Below, in pieces: positions 13,901 to 64,000 of a DNA stretch of 64,000 bases. The stretch comes from Patagioenas fasciata (taxonomy: Eukaryota), in assembly GCF_037038585.1 (NCBI RefSeq), contig NC_092556.1, positions 386,619 through 450,618 of the forward strand, read 5' to 3'. The notes under the pieces are model-generated. The model searched no databases. It worked only from the letters and a program-made list of their open reading frames with translations, and was not told where the DNA came from. Each line of letters begins with the position of its first letter. Position 1 is the first letter of the stretch. A program made the position numbers and the translations under genes.

Positions 13901-16900
13901 TCCGGGGGGGGGTCTGAAAAAGGGACCCAGGCGTCCGGGGGGGTCTGCCCGAGGGACCCAGGCGTCCGGGGGGGGTCTGAAAAAGGGACCCAGGCGTCCG
14001 GGGGGGTCTGCCCGAGGGACCCAGGCATCCGGGGTTGCCCCCCCATTCCCCCCAAAAGGGACCCAGGCGTCCGGGGGGGTCTGCCCGAGGGACCCAGGCG
14101 TCCGGGGGGGTCTGCCCGAGGGACCCAGGCGTCCGGGGGGGTCTGCCCGAGGGACCCAGGCGTCCGGGGGGGTCTGATCAAGGGACCCAGGCGTCCGGGC
14201 AAAGGGACCCAGGCATCCGGGGTGACCCCTAAAAAGGGACCCAGGCGTCCGGGGGGGTCTGCCCGAGGGACCCAGGCGTCCGGGGGGGTCTGATCAAGGG
14301 ACCCAGGCGTCCGGGCAAAGGGACCCAGGCATCCGGGGTGACCCCTAAAAAGGGACCCAGGCGTCCGGGGGGGTCTGCCCAAGGGACCCAGGCGTCCGGG
14401 GGGGTCTGCCCGAGGGACCCAGGCGTCCGGGCGCCCCCACCTCCTTGAACTCCTGGATCTGGGTCTGGTCGAACATGGAGAAAACGTTGGAGCTGCCCTC
14501 GGCCGCTCGGCGCTTCGCCTTCTTGGGGGCCTGCGCGCAGATGGGGGGCAGGATGGGGGGTGGGTGTGGGGCAGGATGGGGGGGGATGTGGGGCAGGATG
14601 TGGGGGGGATGTGGGGGGGATGTGGGGCGGGTGTGGGGGGGTGTGGGGGGGGTGTGGGGCAGGATGGGGGGGGATGTGGGGCAGGATGGGGGGGGGTGTG
14701 GGGCTGGGTGTGGGGGGGGTGTGGGGCAGGATGTGGGGCAGGATGGGGGGCAGGATGGGGGGGATGTGGGGCAGGATGTGGGGCGGGCGTGGGGTGGGTG
14801 TGGGGCAGGATGGGGGGCGGGTGTGGGGTACAAATGGGGCAGGATGTGGGGGGGATGTGGGGCAGGATGTGGGGCAGGATGGGGGGGGGATGTGGGGGGG
14901 ATGTGGGGGGGATGTGGGGCAGGATGGGGGGGGATGTGGGGGGGGATGTGGGGTACAAATGGGGTGGATGTGGGGCAGGATGGGGGGCGGGTGTGGGGCA
15001 GGATGGGGGGGGGATGTGGGGTGGGATGTGGGGGGGATGTGGGGCAGGATGGGGGGGGATGTGGGGTACAAATGGGGCAGGATGTGGGGGGGATGTGGGG
15101 CGGGTGTGGGGGGGATGTGGGGGGGATGTGGGGCAGGATGTGGGGGGGATGTGGGGCGGGTGTGGGGCGGGATGGGGGGGGATGTGGGGCGGGTGTGGGG
15201 CGGGTGTGGGGGGGATGTGGGGGGGATGTGGGGCAGGATGTGGGGGGGATGTGGGGCGGGTGTGGGGCGGGATGGGGGGGGATGTGGGGTACAAATGGGG
15301 CAGGATGTGGGGGGGATGTGGGGGGGATGTGGGGGGGATGTGGGGCGGGTGTGGGGCAGGATGTGGGGGGGATGTGGGGCAGGATGGGGGGCGGGTGTGG
15401 GGGGGATGTGGGGGGGATGTGGGGTGGGATGTGGGGCAGGATGTGGGGCAGGATGGGGGGCGGGTGTGGGGCAGGATGGGGTGGGGATGTGGGGTGGGAT
15501 GTGGGGGGGATGTGGGGGGGATGTGGGGCAGGATGGGGGGGGATGTGGGGGGGATGTGGGGGGGATGTGGGGCAGGATGGGGGGGGATGTGGGGTACAAA
15601 TGGGGCAGGATGTGGGGGGGATGTGGGGCGGGATTTGGGGGGAGATGTGGGGGGGATGTGGGGGGGATGTGGGGGGGATGTGGGGTACAAATAGGGTGGG
15701 ATTTGGGGTACAAATGGGGCAGGTGTGGGGGGGATGTGGGGCAGGATCTGGGGGGGATGTGGGGTGGGATTTGGGGTACAAATGGGGCGGATGTGGGGTG
15801 GATTGGGGGGGATGTGGGGCAGGGATGTGGGGCAGATGGGGAGCAGGGGGTCCCTGGGGGTCCCTATGGGGTCTGGGGGGGATCTGGGGGGGATCTGGGG
15901 GTCCCTATGGGGTCTGGGGGTCCCTATGGGGTTCCCTATGGGGTCTGGGGGTCCCTATGGGGTCTGGGGGTCCCTATGGGGTCTGGGGGGTCCCTGGGGG
16001 TCCCTATGGGGTCTGGGGGTCCCTGGGGGTCCCTATGGGGTCTGGGGGTCCCTATGGGGTCAGGGGGTCCCTGGGGGTCCCTATGGGGTCTGGGGGTCCC
16101 TATGGGGTCTGGGGGTCCCTGGGGGTCTGGGGGGGATGTGGGGGTCCCTATGGGGTCTGGGGGTCCCTGGGGGTCCCTATGGGGTCTGGGGGTCCCTGGG
16201 GGTCTGGGGGGGATGTGGGGGTCCCTATGGGGTCTGGGGGTCCCTGGGGGTCCCTATGGGGTCTGGGGGTCCCTATGGGGTCTGGGGGGGATGTGGGGGT
16301 CCCTATGGGGTCTGGGGGTCCCTGGGGGTCCCTATGGGGTCTGGGGGTCCCTATGGGGTCAGGGGGTCCCTGGGGGTCCCTATGGGGTCTGGGGGTCCCT
16401 ATGGGGTCTGGGGGTCCCTGGGGGTCTGGGGGGGATGTGGGGGTCCCTATGGGGTCTGGGGGTCCCTGGGGGTCCCTATGGGGTCTGGGGGTCCCTGGGG
16501 GTCTGGGGGGGATGTGGGGGTCCCTATGGGGTCTGGGGGTCCCTGGGGGTCCCTATGGGGTCTGGGGGTCCCTATGGGGTCTGGGGGGGATGTGGGGGTC
16601 CCTATGGGGTCTGGGGGTCCCTGGGGGTCCCTATGGGGTCTGGGGGTCCCTATGGGGTCTGGGGGGGATGTGGGGGTCCCTATGGGGTCTGGGGGTCCCT
16701 GGGGGTCCCTATGGGGTCAGGGGGTCCCTGGGGGTCCCTATGGGGTCTGGGGGTCCCTATGGGGTCTGGGGGTCCCTGGGGGTCCCTATGGGGTCTGGGG
16801 GGTCCCTATGGGGTTCCCTATGGGGTCTGGGGGTCCCTATGGGGTCAGGGGGTCCCTATGGGGTCTGGGGGTCCCTGGGGGTCCCTATGGGGTCAGGGGG

Positions 16901-18245: not shown

Positions 18246-20000
18246 GGGTCCCTCCCCGAATTCCTAAGAAGTTCGTCCCGAACGCCTGGGTCCCTCCCCC
18301 CCCCCCCCCCCGAATTCCTGGGGCACTGGGGCACTCCTGGGTCCCCCCCGAACTCCTGGGTCCCTGGGGCACTCCTGGGTCCCTCCCGAACTCCTGGGTC
18401 CCCCCGAACTCCTGGGTCCCTGGGGCACTCCTGGGTCCCTTGGGGTACTCCTGGGTCCCTTGGGGCACTCCTGGGTCCCTCCCTGAACTCCTGGGTCCCT
18501 CCCGAACTCCTGGGTCCCCCTGGACTCGTGGGTCCCTTGGGGCACTCCTGGGTCCCTGGGGCACTCCTGGGTCCCTGGGGCACTCCTGGGTCCCTCCGGA
18601 ACTCCTGGGTCCCTGCCGAACTCCTGGGTCCCTTGGGGCACTCCTGGGTCCCCCCCTGAATTCCTGGGTCCCCCCCCGAACTCCTGGGTCCCCCCTCCCC
18701 CCTCCCCGAACTCCTGGGTCCCCCCTCCCCCCTCCCCGAACTCCTGGGTCCCCTCCAAGTGGGGGAGGGGCGGGAGAAGGCGGCAGGTGCAAGGAGGGGG
18801 GAGGGGGGGGAAGAAGGGACCCAGGCGTCCGGGAGGGGACCCAGGAGTTCGGGGGGGAGGGGACCCAGGCGTCCGAGCGCTATTTTTACCCCTTTGTCCC
18901 GATAAGGGCACCCGGGGGGACCCAGGAGTGCGGGAGGGACCCAGGAGTGCCCCAGGAACCCAGGAGTGCCCCAAGGGACCCAGGAGTGCCCCAAGGGACC
19001 CAGGAGTTCAGGGGGGGACCCAGGAGTGCGGGAGGGACCCAGGAGTGCCCCAGGGACCCAGGAGTGCCCCAAGGGACCCAGGAGTTCAGGGGGGGACCCA
19101 GGAGTGCCCCAGGGACCCAGGAGTTCAGGGGGGGACCCAGGAGTGCGGGAGGGACCCAGGAGTTCGGGGAGGGACCCAGGAGTGCCCCAAGGGACCCAGG
19201 AGTTCGGGGAGGGACCCAGGAGTCCGGGAGGGACCCAGGAGGTCGGGGAGGGACCCAGGAGTGCCCCAAGGGACCCAGGAGTTCGGGAGGGGACCCAGGA
19301 GTCCGGGAGGGGACCCAGGAGTCCGGGAGGGACCCAGGAGTCCGGGAGGGACCCAGGAGTTCCGGGAAGGACCCAGGAGTTCGGGAGGGGACCCAGGAGT
19401 CCGGGAGGGGACCCAGGAGTCCGGGAGGGACCCAGGAGTGCCCCAAGGGACCCAGGAGTTCCGGGAAGGACCCAGGAGTTCGGGAGGGGACCCAGGAGTG
19501 CCCCAAGGGACCCAGGCGTTCGGGAGGGACCCAGGAGTTCAGGAAGGGACCCAGGAGTTCGGGGAAGGACCCAGGAGTGCCCCAAGGGACCCAGGAGTTC
19601 GGGAGGGGACCCAGGAGTTCGGGGGGGAAACCAGGGGTCTGCGAGGGACCCAGGAGTTCAGGAAGGGACCCAGAAGTTCAGAGGGACCCAGGAGTTCGGG
19701 GAGGGACCCAGGAGTGCCCCAGGGACCCAGGAGTTCGGGGGAGGGACCCAGGAGTCCGGGAGGGACCCAGGAGTTCAGGAAAGGACCCAGGAGTCCAGGA
19801 GGGGACCCAGGAGTGCCCCAAAGGACCCAGGAGTTCGGGAGGGGACCCAGGAGTTCGGGAGGGACCCAGGAGTTCGGGAAAGGACCCAGGAGTTCGGGAG
19901 GGGACCCAGGAGTGCCCCAAAGGACCCAGGAGTTCGGGAGGGGACCCAGGAGTTCGGGAGGGACCCAGGAGTTCGGGAAAGGACCCAGGAGTTCGGGAGG
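18230..20000. repeat. GGGACCCAGGAGTKCSGG family satellite. Plus orientation is GAACTCCTGGGTCCC / CACTCCTGGGTCCCTGGGG at 18230-18760. The reverse orientation is at 18800-20000
   Basis: Direct reading. The orientation switches near 18770. Confidence 0.9.
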
Positions 20001-20339
20001 AACCCCACATTGCCCCATTTTACACCACAATTTACCCCAACTTCCCGCCATTTTCCGCTCTGGCCCCGCCCCTTCCCGCTCCCCCACTCGCTCCCCATTG
20101 GCTCACGGCACCGCTCGCCCCGCCCACTCGCTCCCCATTGACCCCATCGCCTCGCCCCGCCCACTCGCTCCCCATTGGCTCACGGCGCCGTCCGCCCCGC
20201 CCACTCGCTCCTCATTGACCCCCATCGCCTCGCCCCGCCCACTCGCTCCCCATTGGCTCACGGCGCCGCTCGCCCCGCCCACTCGCTCCCCATTGGTTCT
20301 CCACGTCCTCTCCCTCCCCTCCTCCCATTGATTGAGGCG

Positions 20340-21840
20340 CCAAACCCATTTTGGGCTCAAATAACCCAGTTTTGGGGGTCAAAGAACCCAGTTTTGGGGT
20401 CGAAAAAGCCATTTTTGGGGTCAAAGAACCCATTTTTGGGGTCAAAACCCCCATTTTTTGGGTCAAATGACCCATTTTTGGGGTCGAAAAAGCCATTTTT
20501 GGGCTCAAATAACCCATTGTTGGGTCTCAAATAACCCATTTTGGGGGTCAAAAAAGCCTTTTTTGGGGTCACAACAGTCATTTCTGGGGTCAAATAACCC
20601 ACTTTTGGGCTCAAATAACCCATTCTTGGGGTCAAATAACCCACACTTGGGCCTAAATAACCCACACTTGGACTCCCATCACCTGTTTTGGGGGTCAAAT
20701 CACCCATTTTTGGGGTTGAAAAAACCATTTTTTGGGTCAAAAAAGCCATTTTTGGGGTCGAAAAAGCCATTTTGAGGCCCAAATAACCCAAGTTTGGGCT
20801 CAAATAACCCATTCTTGGACTCCAATAACCCATTCTTGGGAGTCAAATAACCCACACTCGGGCCTAAATAACCCACACTTGGGCCTAAATAACCCACACT
20901 TGGACTCAAATCACCTGTTTTTGGGTCAAATAACCTGTTTTTTGGGTCAAATAACCCATTTTTGGGGTGGAGGAAGCCGATTTTGGGGTGGAAGAAGCCA
21001 TTTTGGGGGTCACAACAGCCATTTCTGGGGTCAAATAACCCATTCTTAGGCCCAAATAACCCATTCTTGGGGGTCAAATAACCCACTCTTGGGCCTAAAT
21101 AACCCACACTTGGACTCCAATCACCCGTTTTTGGGGTCAAATAACCCGTTTTTTGGGTCAAAAAAGCCATTTTGAGGCCCAAATAACCCAAGTTTGGGCT
21201 GAAATAACCCATTCTTGGACTCCAATAACCCATTCTTGGGGGTCAAATAACCCACACTCGGGCCTAAATAACCCACACTTGGACTCCAATCACCTGTTTT
21301 TGGGTCAAATCACCCGTTTTTGGGGTCAAATAACCCATTTTTGGGGTGGATGAAGCCATTTTGGGGGTCACAACAGCCATTTCTGGGGTCAAATAACCCA
21401 TTCTTAGGCCCAAATAACCCATTCTTGGGGGTCAAATAACCCACTCTTGGGCCTAAATAACCCACACTTGGACTCCAATCACCTGTTTTTGGGTCAAATC
21501 ACCCGTTTTTGGGGTCAAATCACCCGTTTTTGGGGTCAAATAACCCGTTTTTTGGGTCAAAAAAGCCATTTTGAGGCCCAAATAACCCAAGTTTGGGCTC
21601 AAATAACCCATTCTTGGACTCCAATAACCCATTCTTGGGCGTCAAATAACTCACACTCGGGCCTAAATAACCCACACTTGGGCCTAAATAACCCACACTT
21701 GGGCCTAAATAACCCACACTTGGACTCCAATCACCTGTTTTTGGGTCAAATCACCCGTTTTTGGGGTCAAATAACCCGTTTTTGGGGTCAAATCACCCGT
21801 TTTTGGGGTGGAGGAAGCCGATTTTGGGGTGGATGAAGCC
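20340..21840 (+). repeat. AT-richer satellite about 20-22 bp GGGTCAAATAACCCATTYTTGG / GGCCTAAATAACCCACACTTGG with an about 400 bp higher-order period
   Basis: Direct reading. Confidence 0.85.
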
Positions 21841-21850
21841 GATTTTGGGG

Positions 21851-22011
21851 TCAGCAGGGCGGTTTCTGGGCGCCGCGGCGCGCGGGCCCGGGCGGGAAGA
21901 GCTCCACGGGGTCCTGCCCGGTGCGCAGCAGCTGCTGCTCCAGCGCCTGGTGCCGCTTCATGTCCCACAGCACCTTGTCCAGCGCCGCCCGCCGCGACAC
22001 GCGGCCCGGGC
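21851..22011 (-). CDS. PAGR1: PAGR1 exon 3 (..[30 protein letters not shown].., stop)
   Basis: Acceptor tgttgcag|GCCCGGGCC. The stop codon TGA is at 21851-21853. This matches the C-terminal block of human PAGR1. Confidence 0.85.
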
Positions 22012-25000
22012 CTGCAACACCCGAAAACCACGCAATTCAACCCAAACCGCCCGCCCCCACACGCGGCCCGGGCCTGCAACCCAAAATCGCCGCAATTCAA
22101 CCCAAAGCGCCCGCCGCCACACGCGGCCCGGGCCTGCAACACCCGAAAACCACGCAATTCAACCCAAACCGCCCGCCGCCACACGCGGCCCGGGCCTGCA
22201 ACCCAAAATCACCCCAATTCAACCCAAAGCGCCCGCCCCCACACGCGGCCCGGGCCTGCAACACCCGAAAACCACGCAATTCAACCCAAACCGCCCGCCG
22301 CCACACGCGGCCCGGGCCTGCAACCCAAAATCACCGCAATTCAACCCAAAAGTACTTGGGGAGGTTGGGGGAGATCTGGGGGAGATTTGGGGGAGATTTG
22401 GGGGAGATTTGGGGGAGATTTGGGGGAGATTTAAGGGAAATTTAAGGGAAATTTAGGGGAAATTTGGGGGAAATTTGGGGGAGATTTGGGGGAGATTTGG
22501 GGGAGATTTGGGGGAGATTTGGGGGAGATTTAGGGGGAGATTTGGGGAAAAATTTAGGGGAAATTTAGGGGAAATTTGGGGGAAATTTGGGGGAAATTTA
22601 AGGGGAAATTTAAGGGGAAATTTGGGGGAGATTTGGGGGAGATTTGGGGGAGATTTGGGGGAGATTTGGGGGAGATTTGGGGGAGATTTGGGGGGAAATT
22701 TAAGGGGAGATTTGGGGAAAAATTTAGGGGAAATCTAGGGGAAATTTGGGGGAAATTTGGGGGAAATTTAAGGGGAAATTTGGGGGAGATTTGGGGGAGA
22801 TTTGGGGAGGAACGTGGGGCCCACAACCCCAAAAACGCCAGAATTCAACCCAAAGCGCCCGCCCCCACACGCGGCCCGGGCCTGGAACCCAAAAACACCG
22901 CAATTCAACCCAAAAGTAGTGGGGGAGATTTGGGGGAGATCTGGGGGAGATTTGGGGGAGATCTGGGGGAAATTTGGGGGAAATTTGGGGGAAATTTGGG
23001 GGAAATTTAGGGGGAAATTTAGGGGGAAATTTAGGGGAGATTTAAGGGAAATTTAGGGGAAATTTGGGGGAAATCTGAGAGAAATTTAAGGGAAGATTTG
23101 GGGGAGATTTGGGGGGAAATGTAAGGGGAAATTTAGGGGGAGATTTGGGGGAAATTTGGGGGAAAATTTAGAGGAAATTTAGGGGAAATTTAAGGGAAAA
23201 TTTGGGAAATTTGGGGGTAATTTGGGGGAAATTTGGGGGGAAATTTGGGGGGAAATTTGGGGGGAAATTTGGGGGGAATTTGGCGGGAATTTTGGGGGAA
23301 ATTTAGGGGAAATTTGAGGGGAAATTCAGGGGAAATTCGGGGGAAATTTGAGGGGAATTTTGAAGGGAAATTTGGGGAAAATTTGGCGGGAATTTCGAGG
23401 GGGATTTGGGGGATTTTAAGGGAATTTTGGGGGAAATTTTGGGGGGAATTTTGGGGGGAATTTGGCGGGAAGCTCTGGGGTTTCCAGGGATGTAAGGGCA
23501 GCGCGTGGGGGTTAACGAGGGGTTGGTGAGGGGTTAGTGAAGGGTTAATGAGGAGCTAATGAGGAGCTAATGAGGGGTTAATTAGCAGTTAAAGAGGGGC
23601 TAACGAGGGGCTAACGAGGGGTTAATGAGGGGCTAATGAGGGGCTAAGGAGGGGTTAATTAGCGGTTAACGAGGGGCTAACGAGGGTCTCGGGGCCTCAC
23701 CGTGCGCCCTCCGTCGGTCGATGAGCGGCTGCGGCGCCACGGGCTCCAGGGGCTCGTCCTCGAACTCGAACTGCGGCACCACCCGCGGCCTGGGCACAGA
23801 AACCCCCCCAGCTCCCTCAGTCCCCCCCAAATCGCCCTCACAATCCCCCCCAAATCGCCCTCACAATCTCCCCCAAATCGCCCTCACAATCCCCCCCAAA
23901 TCGCCCTCCCAGTCCCCCCCAAATCGCCCTCACAATCCCCCCCAAATCGCCCTCACAATCCCCCCCAAATCGCCCTCCCAGCCCCCCCCAAATCGCCCTC
24001 ACAATCCCCCCCAAATCACCCTCACAATCCCCCCCAAATCGCCCTCCCAGCCCCCCCCAAATCACCCTCACAATCCCCCCCAAATCGCCCTCACAATCCC
24101 CCCCAAATCGCCCTCCCAGCCCCCCCCAAATCGCCCTCACAATCCCCCCCAAATCGCCCTCACAGCCCCCCCCAAATCGCCCTCACAATCCCCCCCAAAT
24201 CGCCCTCCCAGCCCCCCCCAAATCGCCCTCACAGCCCCCCCCAAATCGCCCTCACAGCCCCCCCCAAATCGCCCTCACAATCCCCCCCAAATCGCCCTCA
24301 CAATCCCCCCCAAATCGCCCTCACAATCCCCCCCAAATCGCCCTCACAGTCCCCCCCAAATCGCCCTCCCAGCCCCCCCCAAATCGCCCTCCCAGCCCCC
24401 CCCAAATCGCCCTCACAGCCCCCCCCAAATCGCCCTCACAATCCCCCCCAAATCGCCCTCACAATCCCCCCCAAATCGCCCTCACAGTCCCCCCCAAATC
24501 GCCCTCCCAGCCCCCCCCAAATCACCCTCACAATCCCCCCCAAATCGCCCTCCCAATCCCCCCCAAATCGCCCTCCCAGCCCCCCCCAAATCGCCCTCCC
24601 AGCCCCCCCCAAATCGCCCTCACAGCCCCCCCCAAATCACCCTCACAATCCCCCCCAAATCGCCCTCCCAGCCCCCCCCAAATCGCCCTCCCAATCCCCC
24701 CCAAATCGCCCTCCCAGCCCCCCCAAATCGCCCTCACAGCCCCCCCCAAATCGCCCTCCCAGCCCCCCCCAAATCGCCCTCCCAGCCCCCCCCAAATCGC
24801 CCTCACAGCCCCCCCCAAATCACCCTCACAATCCCCCCCAAATCGCCCTCCCAGCCCCCCCCAAATCGCCCTCCCAGCCCCCCCAAATCGCCCTCACAAT
24901 CCCCCCCAAATCGCCCTCACAGCCCCCCCCAAATCGCCCTCACAATCCCCCCCAAATCGCCCTCACAGCCCCCCCCAAATCGCCCTCCCAGCCCCCCCCA

Positions 25001-28000
25001 AATCGCCCTCACAATCCCCCCCAAATCGCCCTCACAATCCCCCCCAAATCGCCCTCCCAGCCCCCCCCAAATCGCCCTCACAGCCCCCCCAAATCGCCCT
25101 CACAATCCCCCCCAAATCGCCCTCACAATCCCCCCCAAATCGCCCTCCCAGCCCCCCCCAAATCGCCCTCACAATCCCCCCCAAATCACCCTCACAATCC
25201 CCCCCAAATCGCCCTCCCAGCCCCCCCCAAATCGCCCTCCCAGCCCCCCCCAAATCGCCCTCACAATCCCCCCCAAATCGCCCTCACAATCCCCCCCAAA
25301 TCGCCCTCACAGCCCCCCCCAAATCGCCCTCACAATCCCCCCCAAATCGCCCTCACAGCCCCCCCCAAATCGCCCTCCCAGCCCCCCCCAAATCGCCCTC
25401 ACAATCCCCCCCAAATCGCCCTCCCAGCCCCCCCCAAATCGCCCTCCCAGCCCCCCCCAAATCGCCCTCACAGCCCCCCCAAATCGCCCTCACAATCCCC
25501 CCCAAATCGCCCTCACAATCCCCCCCAAATCGCCCTCCCAGCCCCCCCCAAATCGCCCTCCCAGCCCCCCCCAAATCGCCCTCACAGCCCCCCCCAAATC
25601 GCCCTCACAATCCCCCCCAAATCGCCCTCACAATCCCCCCCAAATCGCCCTCACAGTCCCCCCCAAATCGCCCTCCCAGCCCCCCCCAAATCACCCTCAC
25701 AATCCCCCCCAAATCGCCCTCCCAATCCCCCCCAAATCGCCCTCCCAGCCCCCCCCAAATCGCCCTCCCAGCCCCCCCCAAATCGCCCTCACAGCCCCCC
25801 CCAAATCACCCTCACAATCCCCCCCAAATCGCCCTCCCAGCCCCCCCCAAATCGCCCTCCCAATCCCCCCCAAATCGCCCTCCCAGCCCCCCCAAATCGC
25901 CCTCACAGCCCCCCCCAAATCGCCCTCCCAGCCCCCCCCAAATCGCCCTCCCAGCCCCCCCCAAATCGCCCTCACAGCCCCCCCCAAATCACCCTCACAA
26001 TCCCCCCCAAATCGCCCTCCCAGCCCCCCCCAAATCGCCCTCCCAGCCCCCCCAAATCGCCCTCACAATCCCCCCCAAATCGCCCTCACAGCCCCCCCCA
26101 AATCGCCCTCACAATCCCCCCCAAATCGCCCTCACAGCCCCCCCCAAATCGCCCTCCCAGCCCCCCCCAAATCGCCCTCACAATCCCCCCCAAATCGCCC
26201 TCACAATCCCCCCCAAATCGCCCTCCCAGCCCCCCCCAAATCGCCCTCCCAGCCCCCCCCAAATCGCCCTCACAATCCCCCCCAAATCGCCCTCCCAGCC
26301 CCCCCCAAATCGCCCTCCCAGCCCCCCCCAAATCGCCCTCACAGCCCCCCCAAATCGCCCTCACAATCCCCCCCAAATCGCCCTCACAATCCCCCCCAAA
26401 TCGCCCTCCCAGCCCCCCCCAAATCGCCCTCCCAGCCCCCCCAAATCGCCCTCCCAGCCCCCCCAAATCGCCCTCACAGCCCCCCCCAAATCGCCCTCCC
26501 AGCCCCCCCCAAATCGCCCTCACAATCCCCCCCAAATCGCCCTCCCAGCCCCCCCCAAATCGCCCTCCCAATCCCCCCAAATCGCCCTCACAATCCCCCC
26601 CAAATCGCCCTCCCAGCCCCCCCCAAATCGCCCTCCCAGCCCCCCCAAATCGCCCTCACAATCCCCCCCAAATCGCCCTCACAGCCCCCCCCAAATCGCC
26701 CTCACAATCCCCCCCAAATCGCCCTCACAGCCCCCCCAAATCGCCCTCCCAGCCCCCCCCAAATCGCCCTCCCAATCCCCCCCAAATCGCCCTCCCAGCC
26801 CCCCCCAAATCGCCCTCACAATCCCCCCCAAATCGCCCTCACAATCCCCCCCAAATCGCCCTCACAGCCCCCCCCAAATCGCCCTCCCAGCCCCCCCCAA
26901 ATCGCCCTCCCAGCCCCCCCCAAATCGCCCTCACAGCCCCCCCAAATCGCCCTCACAATCCCCCCCAAATCGCCCTCACAATCCCCCCCAAATCGCCCTC
27001 CCAGCCCCCCCCAAATCGCCCTCACAATCCCCCCCAAATCGCCCTCACAATCCCCCCCAAATCACCCTCACAATCCCCCCCAAATCGCCCTCACAATCCC
27101 CCCCAAATCGCCCTCACAGCCCCCCCCAAATCGCCCTCACAATCCCCCCCAAATTTCCCCCTAAGTTCCCCCCAAATTGCCCTCAAAATCCCCCCCAAAC
27201 TTCCCCCCAAATTTCCCCCAAAATTCCCCCAAAATTTCCCCCTAAATTCCCCCCAAATTCTCCCAAATTTCCCTCAAAATCCCCCCCAAACTTCCCCCAA
27301 ACTTCCCCCAAACCTCCCCCAAACCTGCCGCCAAATTCCCCTCCATAATCCCCCCAAATTTCTCCTCAAAATCTCCCAAATTTCCCTCAAAATTCCCCCC
27401 AAATTTCCCCTCACAATTCCCCCCAAATTTCCCTCAAAATTCCCACCAAATTTCCCCCAACTTTTCCCCAAATTTCCCCCAAATCTCCCTCAAAATTCCC
27501 CCCACATTCTTCCCCAAATCTCCCCCAATTCTCTCCCAAATTTCCCCCAAATTATCCCCAAATCTCCCCCCAATTTCCCTCAAAATTTCTCCCAAGTGCC
27601 CCAAAATCTCCCTCAAATCTCCCCCAAATCCCCCCTTAAATTCCCTCTCAAATCTCTCCTTAAATTTCCCAAAATTTCCCCCAAATTTCCCCTCAAATTT
27701 TCCCCAAATCTCCCCCAAATTTCCCCACAAATCTCCCCCAAATTTTCCCCTCAAATTTTCCCCAAATTTCCCTCAAATTTCCCCAAATCGCCCCCAAATT
27801 TTCCCCTAAATTTTCCCAAATTTCCCCCAAATTTTCCCCAAATCTCCCCCAAATTTCTCCCTAAATTCCCCCAAATTTCTCCCTAAATTTCCTCAAATTC
27901 CCCCCAAATTTCCCTCAAATTTTCCCCAAATCTCCCTCAAATTTCCCTCAAATTTTCCCCAAATTTCCCTCAAATTTTCCCCAAATTTCCTCAAATTTCC

Positions 28001-28838
28001 CTCAAATTTTCCCCAAATTTCCCTCAAATTTCCCCAAATTTCCCTCACATTTTCCCCAAATTTCCCCTCAAATTTCCCCAAATTTCACTCAAATTTCCCC
28101 CAAATTTCTCCCCAAATTTTCCCCAAATTCCCCCCAATTTTCCCTGAAATTTCCCCAAATTTCCCTCAAATTTTCCCCAAATTTCCCCTCAAATCTCCCC
28201 CAAATTTTCCCCAATTTTTCCCCAAATTTCCCCTCAAATTTCCCCCAATTTTCCCCCAAATTCCCCCCAAATTTCCCCTCAATTTCCCCCAAATCTCCCC
28301 CCAATCTCCCCCCGATCCCCCCCAGTCCGCACTTGTGCGGGGGCAGGGCGGGCCGCTCGTCGTGGCGCTGCGGCTCGGGGGGCTCCTGGGGGTGGGGGGT
28401 GGGGGGCCGGCGGGGCCGGGAGCCCCCCCGCAGGCGCAGGGTCCCGTGCCGCTCGATCAGCTCCAGCAGGCGCCGCAGCTCGGGGGGCGCGGGCGCCCAG
28501 CCCCCGCCTTCCTCCTCCTCCTCCTCCGCGTCGCTGCACGGGACGCACCAATCGGCGCCCTCCTTGTCCCAATCGGCGCCCTCCTTGTCCCAATTAGCGC
28601 CTTCGTTACCGCAATTAGCGCCTTCGTTACCGCAATTAGCGCCCTCGTTACCCCAAGGGGCGTCCTTCCGGTCCCAAGGGGCGTCCTTCCGGTCCCACGG
28701 GGCGTCCTTCCGGTCCCACGGGGCGCCCTTCCGGTCCCACGGGGCGCCCTTCCGGTCCCAAGGGGCGCCCGGGGGGTCCTCGCCGCCCGTCATGGCCGCC
28801 GGGCTGGGGGAGGCGGGAGCGGCGGCCTCGGCCGCCAT
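21851..28838 (-). CDS. PAGR1: PAXIP1-associated glutamate-rich protein 1 (PA1), complete CDS in 3 exons, about 251 aa
   Basis: Minus-strand exons: 28333-28838, 23701-23789, 21851-22011. Translation: [33 protein letters not shown](WDRK..)...[156 protein letters not shown]. From recall it aligns with human PAGR1 over [95 protein letters not shown]. Length and exon number agree with human PAGR1. Confidence 0.82.
22001..22330 (-). other. PAGR1: About 60 bp unit in about 6 copies, each reiterating the PAGR1 exon 3 splice acceptor plus the first about 11 nt of the exon (ACGCGGCCCGGGCCTGCAAC on the plus strand)
   Basis: The motif is at 22001, 22061, 22121, 22181, 22241 and 22301, with a further copy at 22861. 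Only the 22001-22020 copy joins the real exon. Confidence 0.85.
22340..23480 (+). repeat. 13-bp satellite GGGGGAGATTTGG / GGGGAAATTTAGG (PAGR1 intron 2)
   Basis: Direct reading. Confidence 0.9.
23701..23789 (-). CDS. PAGR1: PAGR1 exon 2 ([31 protein letters not shown])
   Basis: Acceptor tctgtgcccag|GCCGCGGG and donor GCGCACG|gtgaggcccc. This matches the human [23 protein letters not shown] block. Confidence 0.85.
23800..27160 (+). repeat. Largest array: about 155 copies of the 21-22 bp C-rich unit CCCCCCAAATCGCCCTCACAAT (alternating CACAAT / CCCAGC variants), 3.4 kb in PAGR1 intron 1
   Basis: Direct reading. Confidence 0.92.
27160..28320 (+). repeat. Satellite CCCCAAATTTCCCYCAAATTT variants (PAGR1 intron 1)
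   Basis: Direct reading. Confidence 0.85.
28333..28838 (-). CDS. PAGR1: PAGR1 exon 1 (Kozak gcagccATGG; ends ..PPH + AA|gtgcgg)
   Basis: The ORF starts at 28838. The acidic [15 protein letters not shown] and [15 protein letters not shown] segments match PAGR1. The donor was chosen as the only GT that keeps frame with exon 2, and it is a weak donor (gtgcgg). An acceptor-like ccctccatttgcag lies immediately 5' of the ATG, which suggests an upstream non-coding exon. Confidence 0.72.
28540..28760 (-). repeat. PAGR1: In-frame coding 21-bp minisatellite inside PAGR1 exon 1: (APWDRKG/D) x5, (NEGANCG) x3, (DKEGADW) x2
   Basis: Plus strand reads ggtcccacggggcgcccttcc x5, ttaccgcaattagcgccttcg x3 and tcccaatcggcgccctccttg x2. 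All units are 21 bp, so the frame is preserved into the conserved DWCVPCSD block. Confidence 0.85.
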
Positions 28839-28969
28839 GGCTGCAAATGGAGGGTTAATTAGCTTAGAACTGCGTTAATTACAGAGAGAAACGGGCGGTT
28901 TCACTCAGGAATGGGTTAATTAATTCATACGTTCCGTTGTTTGCCGTGGAAATGGGGGTTTAGCTTCGG

Positions 28970-29640
28970 AAAGTGGGGGTTTGGCCTCGGAAATTGCGGA
29001 TTTAACCTCAGAAAATGGGGAATTAACCTCAGAAATTGAATTATTTACCTCAAAAAATGGGGGATTTGCCTCACAAAATGGGGATTTACCCTCAGAAAAT
29101 GGGGATTTAACCTCAGAAAATGGGGATTTAACCTCAGAAAATGGGGATTTAGCCTCGGAAAGTGGGGTTTTAGCCTCAGAAAATGGGGGGTTTGCCTCAG
29201 AAATTGAATTGTTTGCCTCAGAAAATGGGGATTTAACCTCAGAAAATGGGGATTTAACCTCAGAAAATGGGGATTTACCTCAGAAAATGGGGATTTAACC
29301 TCAGAAAATGGGGATTTAACCTCAGAAAATGGGGATTTACCTCACAAATTGAATTGTTTACCTCAGAAAATGGGGATTTAACTTGAAAAAATCGGGGTTT
29401 TGCCTCAAAAAATGGGGATTTAACCTCAAAAATTGGGGGATTTGCCTCAGAAAATGGGGATTTAACCTCAGAAAATGGGGGTTTTGCCTCAGAAAATGGG
29501 GATTTAACCTCAAAATGGGTTCATTACCTTACAAATTGAATTATTTACCTCAAAAATCAGGGGATTTAACCTCAGAAAATGGGGATTTAACCTCAGAAAA
29601 TGGGGATTTAGCCTCAGAAAATGTAGATTATTTACCCCCC
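28970..29640 (+). repeat. 22-bp satellite CCTCAGAAAATGGGGATTTAA, about 30 copies
   Basis: Direct reading. Confidence 0.9.
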
Positions 29641-30000
29641 CATTCCCAGTGTGGCCATGCCGGGGGTCACTGGTTCATACTGGGAATGGGGGGGGGGTTA
29701 CTGGGCCATACTGGGAATGGGGGGGGGGTTACTGGGCCATACTGGGAATGGGGGGGGGTTACTGGGCCATACTGGGGGTCACTGGGCCATACTGGGGGGA
29801 ATGGGGGGGGGGTTACTGGGCCATACTGGGGGTTACTGGGCCATACTGGGAATGGGGGGGGGTTACTGGGCCACACTGGGGGGAATGGGGGGGGTTACTG
29901 GGCCATACTGGGGGTTACTGGGCCATACTGGGAATGGGGGGGGGGTTACTGGGCCATACTGGGGGTCACTGGGCCATACTGGGAATGGGGGGGGGGGCGC
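29640..30000 (+). repeat. Satellite CCATACTGGGAATGGGGGGGGTTACTGGG
   Basis: Direct reading. Confidence 0.85.
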
Positions 30001-50088: not shown

Positions 50089-53000
50089 GTAACGGGGGGA
50101 CCGGGGGACTGGGGGGACTGGGGAGCGATTTGGGGTGACTGGGATGGACTGGGAGGGACTGGGGAGCGATTTGGGGTGACTGGGAGGGACTGGGGGGCGA
50201 TTTGGGGCGACTGGGATGGATGGGGAGGGACTGGGGGGCGACTGGGAGGGACTGGGAGGGATGCGGGGGGAACTGGGAGCGATTGGGAAGGACTGGGAGT
50301 GCTGGGATGGACTGGGGGGACTGGGAGCGACTGGGGGGCGATTTGGGGCGACTGGGATAAACTGGGAAGGGACTGGGGGGGACTGGGAGGGATGGGGGGG
50401 AACTGGGAGCGATTGGGAGGGACTGGGAGTGCTGGGATGGACTGGGGGGAACTGGGAGGGACTGGGAAGGGGTTGGGGGTGACTGGGATAAACTGGGGGG
50501 GCGCTGGGATGAACTGGGAGGGACTGGGGGGCACTGGGAAGGGATTGGGGGCACTGGGAGGGAACTGGGGAGGACTGGGATGTATTGGGAGGAACTGGGG
50601 GGACTGGGGGCACTGGGATGAACTGGGTGGACTGGGAAGCGATTTGGGGTGACTGGGAGGGCCTGAGAAGGGACTGGGAGGGATGGGGGGGGCACTGGGA
50701 GGGACTGGGAAAGGGTTGGGGGTGACTGGGGTAAACTGGGGGGGCACTGGGATGAACTGGGAGGGACTGGGGGGCACTGGGAAGCCTCTAAGAGTGGGTT
50801 TGGGGGTCTCTGTGCACAGGGGGTGCTCGGGGGGGGTTCTGGGTGACCCCCAGGGCCCTTGGGGAGCTGAAACGACCCATACTGGTCCATACTGGTTTAT
50901 ACTGGTTTATACTGGAAATGCCTCTAAGAGTGGATTTGGGGGTTCCTGTGCATAGGGGGTGCTTGGGGGGGGTTCTGGGTGACCCCCAGGGCCCTTGTGG
51001 AGCTGAAACGACCCATACTGGTCCATACTGGTCCATGCTGGTTTATACTGGAAACGCCTCTAAGAGCGGGTTTGGGGGTCTCTGTGCACAGGGGGTGCTC
51101 GGGGGGTCCCTGCTGACCCCCCCGCCCCTCCCCCCCCCCCAGGCTACGCCCGCGTGGCGCTGGCGGCCGCCTCGTTCTGGCTGATGCCGTCGCGCCCCGG
51201 CCCCGCGGCCGCGCTCTACGGGGCCAGCGCCGCTCTGGACGCCGTGGACGGCGCCGTGGCCCGCAGGCTCCACCAGGGTGGGCGGGGCTTGGGGGGGCGG
51301 GGCCTGGGGGCGGGGAGTTTGGGGGGCGGGGCTGATGGGGTGGGGGTGGGGTAGGTTGGGTGGATGGGGGGAGGATGGGGCATGGGGAGGTGGAGGGGGG
51401 GCGTGGTTTAGGAGGGAGGGGGGTGTGGTTTAGAGGGGGTGTGGTTTAGGTGGAGGGGGTGTGGATTAGAGGGGGTGTGGTTTAGGTGGGAGGGGGTGTG
51501 GTTTAGGAGGGAGGGGGGTGTGGTTTAGGTTGGAGGGGGGTGTGGTTTAGGTGGGGGGTGCGGTTTAGGTTGGAGGGGGTGTGGTTTAGGTGGGAGGGGG
51601 CGTGGTTTAGAGGGGGAGTGGTTTACAGGGGGTGTGGTTTAGGTGGGAGGGGGAGTGGCTTGGAGGGGGAGTGGCCTGAGGGGGTGGGGATGCAATGGGG
51701 CGGGGCCTCGGGGCTGGGGGAGGGGTAACGGGGGTGTATAGGGGTGGGGGGGGACATAGGGAGGTGGGAGGGGGCGTGGTTTAGGTGGGGAGGGGTGGGG
51801 CTTTTGGGGGTGGGGATTGGGGGGCGGGGTTTCCGGGGGGCGGGGCCTTGGGGGTGGGGGAGTGGTAACTGCGATGTATAGGGTGGGGAGGGGGCGTGGT
51901 TTAGAGGGGGTGTGGTTTAGGTGGAGGGGGTGTGGTTTAGAGGGGGTGTGGTTTAGGTGGGAGGGGGCGTGGTTTAGGTTGGAGGGGGTGTGGTTTAGGT
52001 GGGAGGGGGCGTGGTTTAGGTGGGAGGGGGCGTGGTTTAGAGGGGGAGTGGTTTATGTGTATTGGGTGTGGTTTAGAGGGGGTGTGGTTTAGAGGGGGTG
52101 TGGTTTAGAGGGGGTGTGGTTTAGAGGGGGCGTGGTTTAGAGGGGGTTGTGGTTTAGAGGGGGCGTGGTTTAGGTGGGAGGGGGCGTGGCTTGGAGGAGT
52201 CGAGGCCACGAGGGGGCAGGTGAAATGACCTATACTGGTTTATACTGGTCCATATTGGTTTATACTGGTCCATACTGGTTTATACTGGGAATGGCATTAT
52301 GGGGGTTTTCTTGGGCAAGGGGGAGCCAGGGGGTCACTGGGGGGTCCCCTAGGACCCTTGAGGAGGTGAAATGACCGATACTGGTTTATACTGGTCCATA
52401 CTGGTTTATACTGGTTTCTGCTGGTTTGAAGGCCCTTAGGGGGTGTCTATGGGGGGTTGGTTCCGGGGGTCACCCGGGGGCCCCCCCGCTGTCCCCGCCC
52501 CCCCAGGGACCCGTTTTGGCGCCATGCTGGACATGCTGACCGACCGGCTGAGCTCCATGTGCCTATTGGTCAACCTGGCGCTGCTCTACCCGGCAACCGC
52601 CGCCCTGTTCCAGCTCAGCATGGCGCTGGACATCGCCAGCCATTGGCTGCACCTGCACTGGTGGGCGGGGCCGGCGGGGGGCGGGGCCCGGCCAGAAGGG
52701 GCGGGGGCAGAGGGGGTGGGGATAAAGGGGGGGGCATAGAGGGGGCGGAGCTAAACGGGGTGGGGGTAAGAGGGTGGGGGTAAGGGGGCGGAGCTAAAGG
52801 GGTGGGGATAGAGGGGGCGGAGCTAAAGGGGTGGAGGTATGGGGGCGGAGCTAAAGGGGTGGGGATAGAGGGGGCGGAGCTAAAGGGCTGAGGGGTGGGG
52901 ACAAAGGGGGTGGGGATAAAGGAGGCGGAGCTTGCAAGAGGGGGTGGGGATAAAGGGGGTGGGGCTAAAGGAGAGAGGTGAAGGGGGCGGTGCTAAAGGG

Positions 53001-56000
53001 GGTGGGGATGAAGAGGGTGGGGCTAAAAGGGGGTGGGGCTAAAGGGGTGGAGCTAAAGGCAGTGGGAATAAAAGGGGTGGAGCTAAGGGGGGCGGGGATA
53101 AAGGGGGTGGGGTTAGAAGGGGCGGGGATAGAGGAGGTGGAGCTAAAAGGGGTTGGGAAGAAGGGGTGGAGCTAAAGGGGCGGAGCTTGGAGGGGATGGG
53201 CGGGGCTAAGGGGGTGTGGTCGGGGGGTGAACTGGGGGGTGCTGGGAAGGCCCAGCTGGGGTCTATGGGGGGGGGGGTGGGCGAAGGGGCGTGGCCGGTG
53301 GGCGTGTCCCCCGTGACCCCGCCCCCTTTCCCCTCCCCCAGCACCACCCTGGAGGGCGGAGCCTCCCACAAGAACGTGGGGGGGGAGGGGCACTGGCTGC
53401 TGCGCCTCTACTACACACACAAGGTGGGGGAGGGGCCAAGGGGGAGGGGCCAAGGGGTGGGGGAGGGGTCATGGGGTTGGGGGAGGGGCCAAGGGGGAGG
53501 GGTCATGTGGTAGGGGGAGGGGTCAGGGGTTTGGGGTGGGGTTGGGGGTGGAGTCATGGATTTGGGGGTGTGGTCAGGGGTTTGGGGGTGGGGTGATGGA
53601 TTTGGGGGTGGGGTCATGGATTTGGGGGTGTGGTCAGGGGTTTGGGGGCGGGGTGATGGATTTGGGGGTGGGGTCAGGGATTTGGGGGTGGGGTCAGAGG
53701 GGTGGGGTGGGGTCATGGGGCGTGGCCAATGTAGGAGGCGGGGTCATTATTTGGGGGCGGGGCCAGGGATTTGGGGGTGTGGTCAGTGTAGGGGTGGAGT
53801 CATTTGGGGGTGGGGGGGCGTGGTCAGTGTGGGGGTGGAGTCAGGGTGGGGTCAGTGTATGGGGACGGGGTCATTATTGGGGGCGGGGCCGTGGGGTTGT
53901 GGGCGGGGCCACGGGGTTGGGGTGGGGTCAGGCGGCTGTGGGCGGGGCCGGGGGCGTGTCCAGCTCAGGGGGCGTGTCGGCGCTGTCCCCGCCCCCAGCC
54001 GGTGCTGTTCGTGGTCTGTGCTGGGAACGAAGCGTTTTACTGCGCGCTCTACCTGCTCCGCTTCGGCGACGGGCCCCGCGGTGAGGCGCTGGGCACACGG
54101 GGCACAGACTGGGCACAGACTGGGTACACTGGGTACAGACTGGTTAGACTGGGTACAGACTGGTCAGACTGGGTACGGACTGGTCAGACTGGGTACAGAC
54201 TGGTTAGATTGGGTACAGACTGGTCAGACTGGGTACAGACTGGTCAGACTGGGTACGGACTGGTCAGACTGGGTACGGACTGGTTAGACTGGGTACAGAC
54301 TGGTTAGACTGGGTACGGACTGGTTAGACTGGGTACGGACTGGTCAGACTGGGTACGGACTGGTCAGACTGGGTACAGACTGGTCAGACTGGGTACGGAC
54401 TGGTCAGACTGGGTACGGACTGGTCAGACTGGGTACGGACTGGTCAGACTGGGTACGGACTGGTCAGACTGGTTACAGACTGGTCAGACTGGGTACAGAC
54501 TGGTCAGACTGGGTACAGACTGGTCAGACTGGGTACAGACTGGTCAGACTGGGTACGGACTGGTCAGACTGGGTACGGACTGGTCAGACTGGGTACAGAC
54601 TGGTTAGATTGGGTACAGACTGGTCAGACTGGGTACAGACTGGTTAGACTGGGTACGGACTGGTCAGACTGGGTACAGACTGGTCAGACTGGGTACGGAC
54701 TGGTCAGACTGGGTACAGACTGGTCAGACTGGGTACAGACTGGTCAGACTGGGCACAGACTGGTCAGACTGGGTACAGACTGGTCAGACTGGGTACGGAC
54801 TGGTCAGATTGGGTACGGACTGGTCAGACTGGGTACAGACTGGTCAGACTGGGTACAGACTGGTCAGACTGGGTACGGACTGGTCAGACTGGGTACGGAC
54901 TGGTCAGACTGGGTACGGACTGGTCAGACTGGGTACAGACTGGTCAGACTGGGTACAGACTGGTCAGACTGGGTACGGACTGGTCAGACTGGGTACGGAC
55001 TGGTCAGACTGGGTACAGACTGGTCAGACTGGGTACAGACTGGTCAGACTGGGCACAGACTGGTCAGACTGGGTACAGACTGGTTAGATTGGGTACAGAC
55101 TGGTCAGACTGGGTACGGACTGGTCAGACTGGGTACAGACTGGTTAGATTGGGTACAGACTGGTCAGACTGGGTACGGACTGGTCAGACTGGGTACAGAC
55201 TGGTCAGACTGGGTACAGACTGGTCAGACTGGGTACAGACTGGTCAGACTGGGTACAGACTGGTCAGACTGGGTACGGACTGGTCAGACTGGGTACAGAC
55301 TGGTCAGACTGGGTACAGACTGGTTAGACTGGGTACAGACTGGTCAGACTGGGTACGGACTGGTCAGACTGGGTACAGACTGGTCAGACTGGGCACAGAC
55401 TGGTTAGATTGGGTACAGACTGGTTAGATTGGGTACAGACTGGTCAGACTGGGTACAGACTGGTTACAGACTGGTTAGACTGGTTACAGACTGGTTACAG
55501 ACTGGTTACACTGGTTACAGACTGGTTACAGACTGGTTACAGACTGGTTAGACTGGTTACACTGGTTACAGACTGGTTACAGACTGGTTAGACTGGTTAC
55601 ACTGGTTACAGACTGGTTAGACTGGTTACAGACTGGTTAGACTGGTTACAGACTGGTTACAGACTGGTTACACTGGTTACAGACTGGTTACAGACTGGTT
55701 AGACTGGTTACACTGGGTACAGACTGGTTACAGACTGGTTACAGACTGATTACACTGGTTACACTGGTTACAGATTGGTCAGACTGGTTACACTGGTTAC
55801 ACTGGTTACACTGGTTACACACTGGTTACACTGGGGAGAGAGTGGTCAGACTGGTTACAGACTGGTCACAGACTGGTTACACTGGTCAGACTGGTCACAG
55901 ACTGGTTACACTGGTCAGACTGGTTACAGACTGGTTACACTGGTTACAGACTGGTTACACTGGTTACAGACTGGTTACAGACTGGTTACACTGGTTACAG

Positions 56001-62519: not shown

Positions 62520-64000
62520 GGGTGATGTGGGGTGATGTGGGGTGATGTGGGGCAGATGTGGGGCGGGATGTGGGGTGATGTGGGGCAGATGTGGGGCGGG
62601 ATGTGGGGTGATGTGGGGCGGGATGTGGGGTGATGTGGGGCGGGATGTGGGGCAGCTCGTAGCGGCCCTGCAGCGTCAGCAGGTGCAGCGCCTGCAGCCC
62701 TGCAGGTGGGGCGATGTGGGGTGATGTGGGGTGATGTGGGGCAGGATGTGGGGCGGGATGTGGGGCAGATGTGGGGCGGGATGTGGGGCAGCTCGTAGCG
62801 GCCCTGCAGCGTCAGCAGGTGCAGCGCCTGCAGCCCTGCAGGTGGGGCGATGTGGGGTGATGTGGGGTGATGTGGGGTGATGTGGGGAGGGATGTGGGGC
62901 AGATGTGGGGCGGGATGTGGGGCAGCTCGTAGCGGCCCTGCAGCGTCAGCAGGTGCAGCGCCTGCAGCCCTGCGTGTGGGGTGATGTGGGGTGATGTGGG
63001 GTGATGTGGGGCAGATGTGGGGCAGATGTGGGGCGGGATGTGGGGCAGCTCGTAGCGGCCCTGCAGCGTCAGCAGGTGCAGCGCCTGCAGCCCTGCAGGT
63101 GGGGTGATGTGGGGTGATGTGGGGCAGATGTGGGGCGGGATGTGGGGCAGATGTGGGGTGATGTGGGGCAGATGTGGGGCAGGATGTGGGGCAGCTCGTA
63201 GCGGCCCTGCAGCGTCAGCAGGTGCAGCGCCTGTAGCCCTGGATGTGGGGTGATGTGGGGTGATGTGGGGCGGGATGTGGGGCAGCTCGTAGCGGCCCTG
63301 CAGCGTCAGCAGGTGCAGCACCTGCAGCCCTGCATGTGGGGTGATGTGGGGTGATGTGGGGTGATGTGGGGTGATGTGGGGCAGGATGTGGGGCGGGATG
63401 TGGGGCAGCTCGTAGCGGCCCTGCAGCGTCAGCAGGTGCAGCGCCTGCAGCCCTGCAGGTGGGGCGATGTGGGGTGATGTGGGGTGATGTGGGGCAGGAT
63501 GTGGGGCGGGATGTGGGGCAGATGTGGGGCGGGATGTGGGGCAGCTCGTAGCGGCCCTGCAGCGTCAGCAGGTGCAGCGCCTGCAGCCCTGCAGGTGGGG
63601 CGATGTGGGGTGATGTGGGGTGATGTGGGGTGATGTGGGGAGGGATGTGGGGCAGATGTGGGGCGGGATGTGGGGCAGCTCGTAGCGGCCCTGCAGCGTC
63701 AGCAGGTGCAGCGCCTGCAGCCCTGCGTGTGGGGTGATGTGGGGTGATGTGGGGTGATGTGGGGCAGATGTGGGGCAGATGTGGGGCGGGATGTGGGGCA
63801 GCTCGTAGCGGCCCTGCAGCGTCAGCAGGTGCAGCGCCTGCAGCCCTGCAGGTGGGGTGATGTGGGGTGATGTGGGGCAGATGTGGGGCGGGATGTGGGG
63901 CAGATGTGGGGTGATGTGGGGCAGATGTGGGGCAGGATGTGGGGCAGCTCGTAGCGGCCCTGCAGCGTCAGCAGGTGCAGCGCCTGTAGCCCTGGATGTG
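62520..64000 (+). repeat. About 120-150 bp tandem units in about 11 copies. Each is a copy of the MFAP4-like penultimate-exon acceptor plus the first about 50 nt of that exon, followed by GATGTGGGG satellite
   Basis: The unit GGGCAGCTCGTAGCGGCCCTGCAGCGTCAGCAGGTGCAGCGCCTGCAGCCCTGCAGGTGGGGTGATGTGGGG.. is repeated. The minus-strand ORF 62812-63321 reads [17 protein letters not shown] three times. Confidence 0.9.

Follow-up and report, generated by a model that had tools for sequence, protein, structure and literature searches.

The window analysed here, a stretch of 64,000 nucleotides from Patagioenas fasciata (NCBI RefSeq assembly GCF_037038585.1, contig NC_092556.1, positions 386,619 to 450,618 of the forward strand), contains the gene PAGR1, in which the splice acceptor of exon 3 is reiterated in the intron that precedes it. 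PAGR1 is a minus-strand gene with three coding exons: the coding part of exon 1 at 28333..28838 (ATG at 28838, donor CACAA^GTGCGG, where ^ marks a sequence boundary), exon 2 at 23701..23789 (donor CACG^GTGAGG) and the coding part of exon 3 at 21853..22011, with its first base at 22011 and a TGA stop at 21853-21851. The assembled product of 251 aa was 100% identical over its full length to RefSeq XP_071657449.1 (PAXIP1-associated glutamate-rich protein 1, Patagioenas fasciata) and was matched by the Pfam profile PAXIP1_C at 2.3e-20. The translation of exon 3, identical to the corresponding part of XP_071657449.1, was aligned to the C-terminal end of that profile (positions 108-131).

A tandem array at 21985..22350 on the minus strand was delimited using Tandem Repeats Finder (TRF), repeat search, register listing and alignment. 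The initial annotation had described about six tandem reiterations of the PAGR1 exon 3 acceptor junction in a 60-bp unit, and the count was borne out: the 20-mer ACGCGGCCCGGGCCTGCAAC was present in six exact copies on the plus strand, at 21999, 22061, 22121, 22183, 22243 and 22305, with 0 matches in 100 dinucleotide-preserving shuffles of the window. The unit length was right only as an approximation. The spacing of the copies alternated between 62 and 60 bp, and the array is therefore built of two diverged sub-units, of 62 nt (A) and 60 nt (B), which together make a 122-bp higher-order unit present in three copies. TRF returned a period of 62 x 6.0 copies (87% matches) or, better, of 122 x 3.0 copies (97%). 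The A and B units were a 2-nt indel and several substitutions apart, and the higher-order copies were 96-97% identical.

On the gene strand the 20-mer reads GTTGCAG^GCCCGGGCCGCGT, which is 7 nt of intron and 13 nt of exon, not the 11 nt of exon that had first been assigned to it. Each unit was composed of 27 nt of exon-derived sequence and 33-35 nt of the 3' end of the intron (TTTGGGTTGAATTGCG..TTGCAG), and the 3'-most 26-27 nt of the array on the gene strand were the start of the real exon 3. The units opened with GCCCGGGCCGCGTGTGG(C/G)GGCGGGCG(G/C), corresponding to the first 26-27 nt of exon 3 except that the exon's C at +16 (window position 21996) is invariably G and the base at +18 varies. 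Likeness to the exon spanned positions 1-27 and was followed by a switch to TTTGGGTTGAATTG; past position 27 the real exon reads CGCTGGACAAGG and the repeat units read TTTGGGTTGAAT. Each junction contained the 10-nt palindrome GGCCCGGGCC.

A distal copy of about 1.9 units was located at 22794..22915 on the minus strand by repeat search, 20-mer match, register listing and alignment, 564 bp upstream of the last copy of the main array. An extra copy had been placed near 22861; it exists, with a seventh copy of the 20-mer at 22869 (one mismatch) and an exon-like start at 22881. Its acceptor was TTCCAG^GCCCGGG, and a second, degenerate unit (GTTGTG^GGCCCC) came after it. With 72% identity to the reference, the distal copy appears to be older than the main array. 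Both have a common 5' edge, where satellite passes into the unit (TAC^TTTTGGGTTGAATTGCGGTG), and a larger block of satellite plus junction would therefore have been duplicated before the short unit was amplified.

Intron 2 was otherwise occupied by satellite. An 11-bp satellite (TTGGGGGAAAT on the plus strand) filled most of it (TRF, 22365..23471) and encloses the distal copy, and a second 11-bp satellite (GGGGTTAATGA) lay at its 5' end (TRF, 23508..23686). Tandem repeats called by TRF covered 96% of intron 2, 99% of intron 1 and 83.7% of the whole window. No Rfam family was found at gathering score in 20000-30000.

The genuine exon 3 acceptor AG was assigned to 22012..22013 on the minus strand (gene strand ...ggttttcgggtgttgcag^GCCCGGG), in phase 1 with the exon 2 donor CACG^GTGAGG and in agreement with the orthologue alignment. 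The genuine acceptor is thus predicted to be the array copy nearest the exon, and the remaining six copies (five tandem and one distal) are predicted decoys. Not all of the exact copies are therefore upstream of the real exon, as had been supposed; the first of the six is the real junction. The downstream copy was taken as the true acceptor because the exon 2/3 junction RRRAH^G^ aligned gap-free with the Columba, Caloenas and primate proteins, because the exon 3 frame is closed by a stop 9 codons upstream of 22011, and because starts at the upstream copies lose the conserved C-terminus. Stops were present in all three frames across the array. On the same evidence (alignment, stops and lost C-terminus) a true acceptor at one of the upstream copies, which would have overturned the initial annotation, was judged very unlikely.

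The tandem decoys, all on the minus strand, were at 22061..22080 (decoy 1, B-type context, exon-like start 22073), 22121..22140 (decoy 2, A-type, start 22133), 22183..22202 (decoy 3, B-type, start 22195), 22243..22262 (decoy 4, A-type, start 22255) and 22305..22324 (decoy 5, B-type, start 22317), the last being the 5'-most unit, directly after the satellite/TAC edge. If exon 3 began at these sites or at the distal copy, 62, 122, 184, 244, 306 or 870 nt would be added, giving tails of 38, 58, 163, 15, 73 and 52 residues, respectively. Decoys 1 to 3 would give frameshifts, and decoys 4 and 5 would run into a stop after 15 and 73 aa. All six predicted products had aberrant tails without the invariant motif LDKVL.DMKRH..LE.Q.LRTG of the conserved C-terminus.

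The description of the copies as cryptic acceptors in register with the genuine site held up, as the units were complete 3' splice-site modules. The decoys starting at 22133 and 22255 were identical to the genuine site over -40 to +15, and splice-site scores on that interval therefore cannot separate these two from it. In the last 35 nt before the AG, the sole other adenines were those of a GAA, at -26/-25 in A units and at -24/-23 in B units, the latter with another at -14; every unit therefore has its own candidate branch site. These adenines preceded a G/T-rich tract that is weak (pyrimidines at 44-56% between -20 and -5) and CAG^G. A recursive splice site, with a donor regenerated as AG^GT, was found at none of the copies, all of which read CAG^GCCCGG. 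Spliced junctions from the two kinds of site would differ in sequence: CACG^GCCCGGGCCGCGTGTCGCGG, with a diagnostic C at +16, for the genuine acceptor, and GTGTGGCGG or GTGTGGGGG for decoy-derived products. No silent alternative path was found in Patagioenas, where no AG occurs within the real exon's first 27 nt and the copies carry a different base at +16. Hiding of the decoys by RNA structure was considered and rejected; the fold of a 441-nt part of the pre-mRNA had z = -1.14, and 14 of 100 shuffles folded as well. A homology search with pigeon PAGR1 for Logan transcript-derived proteins returned, for the pigeons, only NCBI models, each in a one-member cluster.

Arrangements of this kind have been described by Hron et al. 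(Genome Biol Evol 2026;18(3):evag038, PMC12954441; bioRxiv 10.1101/2025.09.16.676548) as 'sequence stuttering' on chicken dot chromosomes, including 'exon stuttering', in which a coding exon's lateral part is copied with the adjoining donor or acceptor site along the neighbouring intron (PMC12954441). In the published cases the source lay at most 1 nt from the exon border in >90%, the exon part measured 20-187 bp (median 36) and the copies numbered 1-44 (median 4); the host introns were heavily covered by simple repeats, the orthologous introns of related birds were differently structured with independent expansions, and the chicken stuttering was verified by nanopore (PMC12954441). Slippage, unequal exchange or gene conversion was proposed for stuttering in general, and intraspecies (population) variation in intron length was given as a defining feature of it in chicken (PMC12954441). 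Neither PAGR1 nor CDIPT is mentioned in the main text or text-form supplements of that paper, and RNA sequencing (RNA-seq) is not mentioned in its main text.

The published screen was applied to PAGR1 using blastn-short with dust off, exons 1-3 being compared with introns 1-2; its published thresholds are a length of at least 20 nt and a score of at least 42.1 bits. Positions 1-26/27 of exon 3 matched intron 2 six times, all in direct orientation, at 36.2-46.1 bits. All six matches ran from exon 3 to intron 2 and began at exon position 1, the copies being preceded directly by TTGCAG or TTCCAG; no exon matched intron 1. The maximum in shuffled introns (n = 100) was 36.2 bits, and when 15 nt of intron flank were added to the query all six copies scored 42.1-73.8 bits. 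The source exon 3 was intact, with a RefSeq-identical protein, the PAXIP1_C match and the C-terminal motif kept.

It is highly probable that the array is a case of exon stuttering, in which a junction segment was tandemly duplicated and then amplified in a near-pure satellite intron. As in the cases of Hron et al., an exon edge and its splice site are present as imperfect direct tandem repeats in the adjacent intron while the exon itself is intact, the 27 nt of the exon part and the 6 copies lie within the published ranges, and related species differ in structure. The window has traits like those of a dot chromosome (61.8% G+C, 84% tandem repeats, and the presence of MFAP4, CDIPT, PAGR1 and, judged by its motif, a putative N-terminus of a TAOK2-like kinase). 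Unlike the published screen, which was of chicken, the present case comes from a pigeon and concerns PAGR1. It further differs from the published cases in its two-level order (60/62, then 122 bp), in a complete 3' splice-site module that takes in the only branch-point-like adenines, and in an outgroup that marks the single acceptor as the likely ancestral state.

That outgroup was found among three pigeon loci, namely two of Columba livia (L001, from GCA_036013475.2, and L002, from GCA_032206205.1) and one of Caloenas nicobarica (L003). In Columba livia L001, upstream of the real exon 3 (L001:14866), pattern matching gave 11 decoy acceptors and blastn-short gave 12. Their units, of about 62-157 nt, were composed of (GATTTGGGNN)n, tttcggcag^ and an exon part, which measured about 42 nt in young copies and about 20 nt in older ones, against 27 nt in Patagioenas. 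L002 had the same layout. Comparison of L001:12013-14865 with L002:13184-16057 gave 20 one-base homopolymer insertions (17 C and 3 G events) and no substitutions, a difference that looks like sequencing error, and L002 was not counted as an independent bird. In Caloenas nicobarica there was one acceptor (ttttttgcgattccag^GCCCCTCCGGG) with an AT-rich intron 2, and no junction copies were found in the 23 kb of that locus. The single acceptor of Caloenas is therefore likely to be ancestral and the arrays derived; these likely originated, and changed in structure, on the branch or branches that led to Columba and Patagioenas.

Exon boundaries have been placed on decoys in Columba gene models. The RefSeq protein XP_064900382.1 of Columba livia carries a 23-aa in-frame insertion that corresponds to the stutter copy at L001:14288-14356, included as a 69-nt extra exon with the donor TTTG^gtctga. 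In L002 the annotation rows KAK2510975-7 (15479-16257) have boundaries at 15516, 15570-15607 and 15870, on decoy acceptors and on the donor-like AAG^gtgcag with which the exon part of each decoy ends, and a 38-nt decoy mini-exon followed by an AG inside the real exon encodes an identical protein. For the three rows of GCA_032206205.1 the comparison extends to the coincidence of boundaries and the equivalence of paths. Either Columba splices at these sites, or the repeated 38 nt cannot be placed by aligners and predictors. A 1-nt difference in a run of GCGCGC also displaces the C-terminus of the L002 model with respect to L001.

The window also holds MFAP4 and CDIPT, which were located by tblastn with human sequences that served as probes only. 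The initial annotation had seen the same phenomenon in both, and it was found in MFAP4. The acceptor of an internal exon of MFAP4 (minus strand, exon start 62511) had 11 copies at 62652-63994, of 60-64 nt and 95-100% identity, each then followed by CCCCACATC satellite. The acceptor of its last exon (start 59721) had 3 copies, at 60206, 60837 and 61676, of 73 nt and 100% identity (span 60206-61748), each then followed by GTCAATGGGG satellite. MFAP4 is on chicken dot chr38 and is among the 115 published exon-stuttering genes (PMC12954441). For CDIPT the likeness did not extend to the three exons located by tblastn (51142-54076, plus strand), which were without junction copies elsewhere in the window. 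A palindrome as a general trigger of stuttering was rejected: the MFAP4 internal junction has CCTGCAGG, and the last-exon junction has none.

The structure of the units suggests how the array may have been built. A tandem duplication would have run from a left breakpoint in the satellite of the intron to a right one lying 27 nt inside exon 3, so as to take in some 35 nt of intron and some 27 nt of exon. The distal copy at 22794-22915 would descend from an early copy and the 11-mer satellite flanking it. The 60-62-nt unit would then have diverged into its A and B forms, and the A+B dimer of 122 bp would have been triplicated recently, as its 96-97% identity suggests. Slippage during replication, unequal exchange or gene conversion probably generated the copies, on a presumed dot microchromosome that is rich in GC and dense in repeats. 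With the right breakpoint inside the exon, the last copy is always joined to the intact exon, so the coding sequence survives and the copies are automatically in register. The spliceosome may pick the most downstream site because only that copy precedes the real exon body beyond +27. The consequence would be six decoy 3' splice sites upstream of the exon, use of which would deprive PAGR1 of the conserved C-terminus that binds PTIP. Most likely the array is a by-product of repeat expansion, anywhere from neutral to slightly harmful, and not a device.

The alternative that survives best is that the decoys are used on purpose, either as unproductive-splicing sinks that set PAGR1 dosage or as recruiters of U2AF/U2 that aid a weak genuine site. 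The match of two decoys to the real site over -40 to +15 and the candidate branch adenines of all of them speak for such a role, as do the reiteration of the same junction in Columba livia and the two Columba annotations, the XP_064900382.1 insertion and the KAK2510975-7 rows, with exon boundaries on decoys. The Columba models may, however, reflect ambiguity of aligners or predictors, since the first 38 nt of the decoys equal those of the real exon and yield the same protein. The two genera differ in how the unit is built, in breakpoints and in copy number, and Caloenas is without an array, which is turnover and not conservation; the same pattern at MFAP4 points to a regional process and not one specific to the gene, and the RNA fold of the array was unremarkable. 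Purposeful use was accordingly judged quite unlikely.

It was considered very unlikely that the array is an assembly artefact, that is, a spurious expansion of a GC-rich region in a long-read assembly. A single Patagioenas assembly was available, an exact protein look-up gave no other contig, and the two Columba assemblies may not be independent of each other, given their 20 homopolymer insertions and lack of substitutions. Against this, the copies are not identical (A and B differ, the higher-order copies are at 96-97% and the distal copy at 72%), as expected of real, aged duplicates, and the same architecture was seen at the Columba junction and at MFAP4 and was verified by nanopore in chicken (PMC12954441). 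That the array is coding, or that exon 3 really starts at an upstream copy and PAGR1 thus contains a repeated peptide, has in its favour the in-frame coding repeats of exon 1 and the one in-frame copy of the Columba RefSeq model, and is scarcely credible in view of the stops in all three array frames (the TGA of each TTGAATT unit shifting frame with the 60/62 alternation), the loss of LDKVL.DMKRH..LE.Q.LRTG from every upstream start and the use of the downstream site in the species' own RefSeq protein.

Exon stuttering, as the preferred explanation, was further set beside two better-known kinds of element. Like intronic minisatellites or variable number tandem repeat (VNTR) arrays, the array has units of tens of bp in head-to-tail order, a higher-order periodicity and a probable growth by slippage or unequal exchange. 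Unlike them, its unit was seeded by unique gene sequence with a functional splice junction, so that every unit is a potential splice site. As with NAGNAG acceptors and pseudo or decoy 3' splice sites, several AG acceptors would compete near one exon start. NAGNAG acceptors lie 3 nt apart, use a common branch point and polypyrimidine tract and give in-frame variants of 1 aa, whereas the pigeon sites lie 60-62 nt apart, have upstream signals of their own and all disrupt the reading frame.

Several points weigh against exon stuttering with harmless decoys. With exon-only queries, three of the six copies scored 44.1-46.1 bits, above the threshold of 42.1 bits, and the other three scored 36.2-38.2 bits. 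The identity of the chromosome as a dot chromosome may be questioned, as it is based only on composition and gene content. Acceptor choice in Patagioenas was read from sequence alone, and the copy number there from one assembly. Judged by sequence, decoys and real site are equally strong, so why the decoys should be ignored is not obvious, and the description of the array as a harmless by-product may understate the splicing cost of decoys. Finally, a local hotspot or selection could also account for stuttering of one junction in two genera.

A bolder combination of these ideas was also considered, in which the decoys would be used at appreciable levels, the dose of functional PAGR1 in Patagioenas and Columba would be set by a fast-evolving, copy-variable array serving as a splicing sink, the exon 2/3 junction would act as a hotspot of repeated stuttering, and the edges of exons on dot chromosomes would evolve by gene conversion from intronic copies, with the C/G difference at +16 (Ser vs Trp) as a trace. 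Taken jointly, these proposals were given a small chance of being correct.

Some further features of the window were recorded. Exon 1 of PAGR1 contained in-frame 21-nt coding tandem repeats at 28548-28767 on the minus strand (TRF, 93-96% matches), encoding APWDRKG about 5.5 times, GNEGANC about 3 times and WDKEGAD about 2.6 times. In Caloenas nicobarica a different repeat (AAADY) was present at that place. Repeat expansion thus enters the coding sequence of pigeon PAGR1 exon 1, as compared with the intact coding regions of the chicken paper. The GGGGGA(A/G)ATTT family of 11-mer satellites was also found in intron 1 beside exon 1 (28000-28330); on the gene strand it is G-rich in intron 1 and C-rich, in the opposite orientation, in intron 2. 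The same 11-mer satellite was present in intron 1 of Caloenas nicobarica (L003:10448-11279) and is therefore not strictly local to one intron. The window contained 59 non-repeat islands of at least 60 bp (9.7 kb in total), and those checked (PAGR1, CDIPT and MFAP4) coincided with exons.

The stuttered acceptor of PAGR1 is a new example of a phenomenon already described as exon stuttering, and it extends that phenomenon, catalogued so far in chicken only, to the Columbidae and to a gene that is absent from the searched text of the published list. The comparison of three species gives the process a direction, with a single acceptor in Caloenas and differently built arrays in Columba and Patagioenas, and it supports lineage-specific expansion, more than once, at a single junction. 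Gene models can be corrupted by stutter copies: the 23-aa insertion in the Columba livia RefSeq PAGR1 matches one such copy exactly. The array also provides a clean natural experiment for the choice of 3' splice sites, with up to six decoys, two of which differ from the real site only past +15 (C/G at +16, then divergence after +27).

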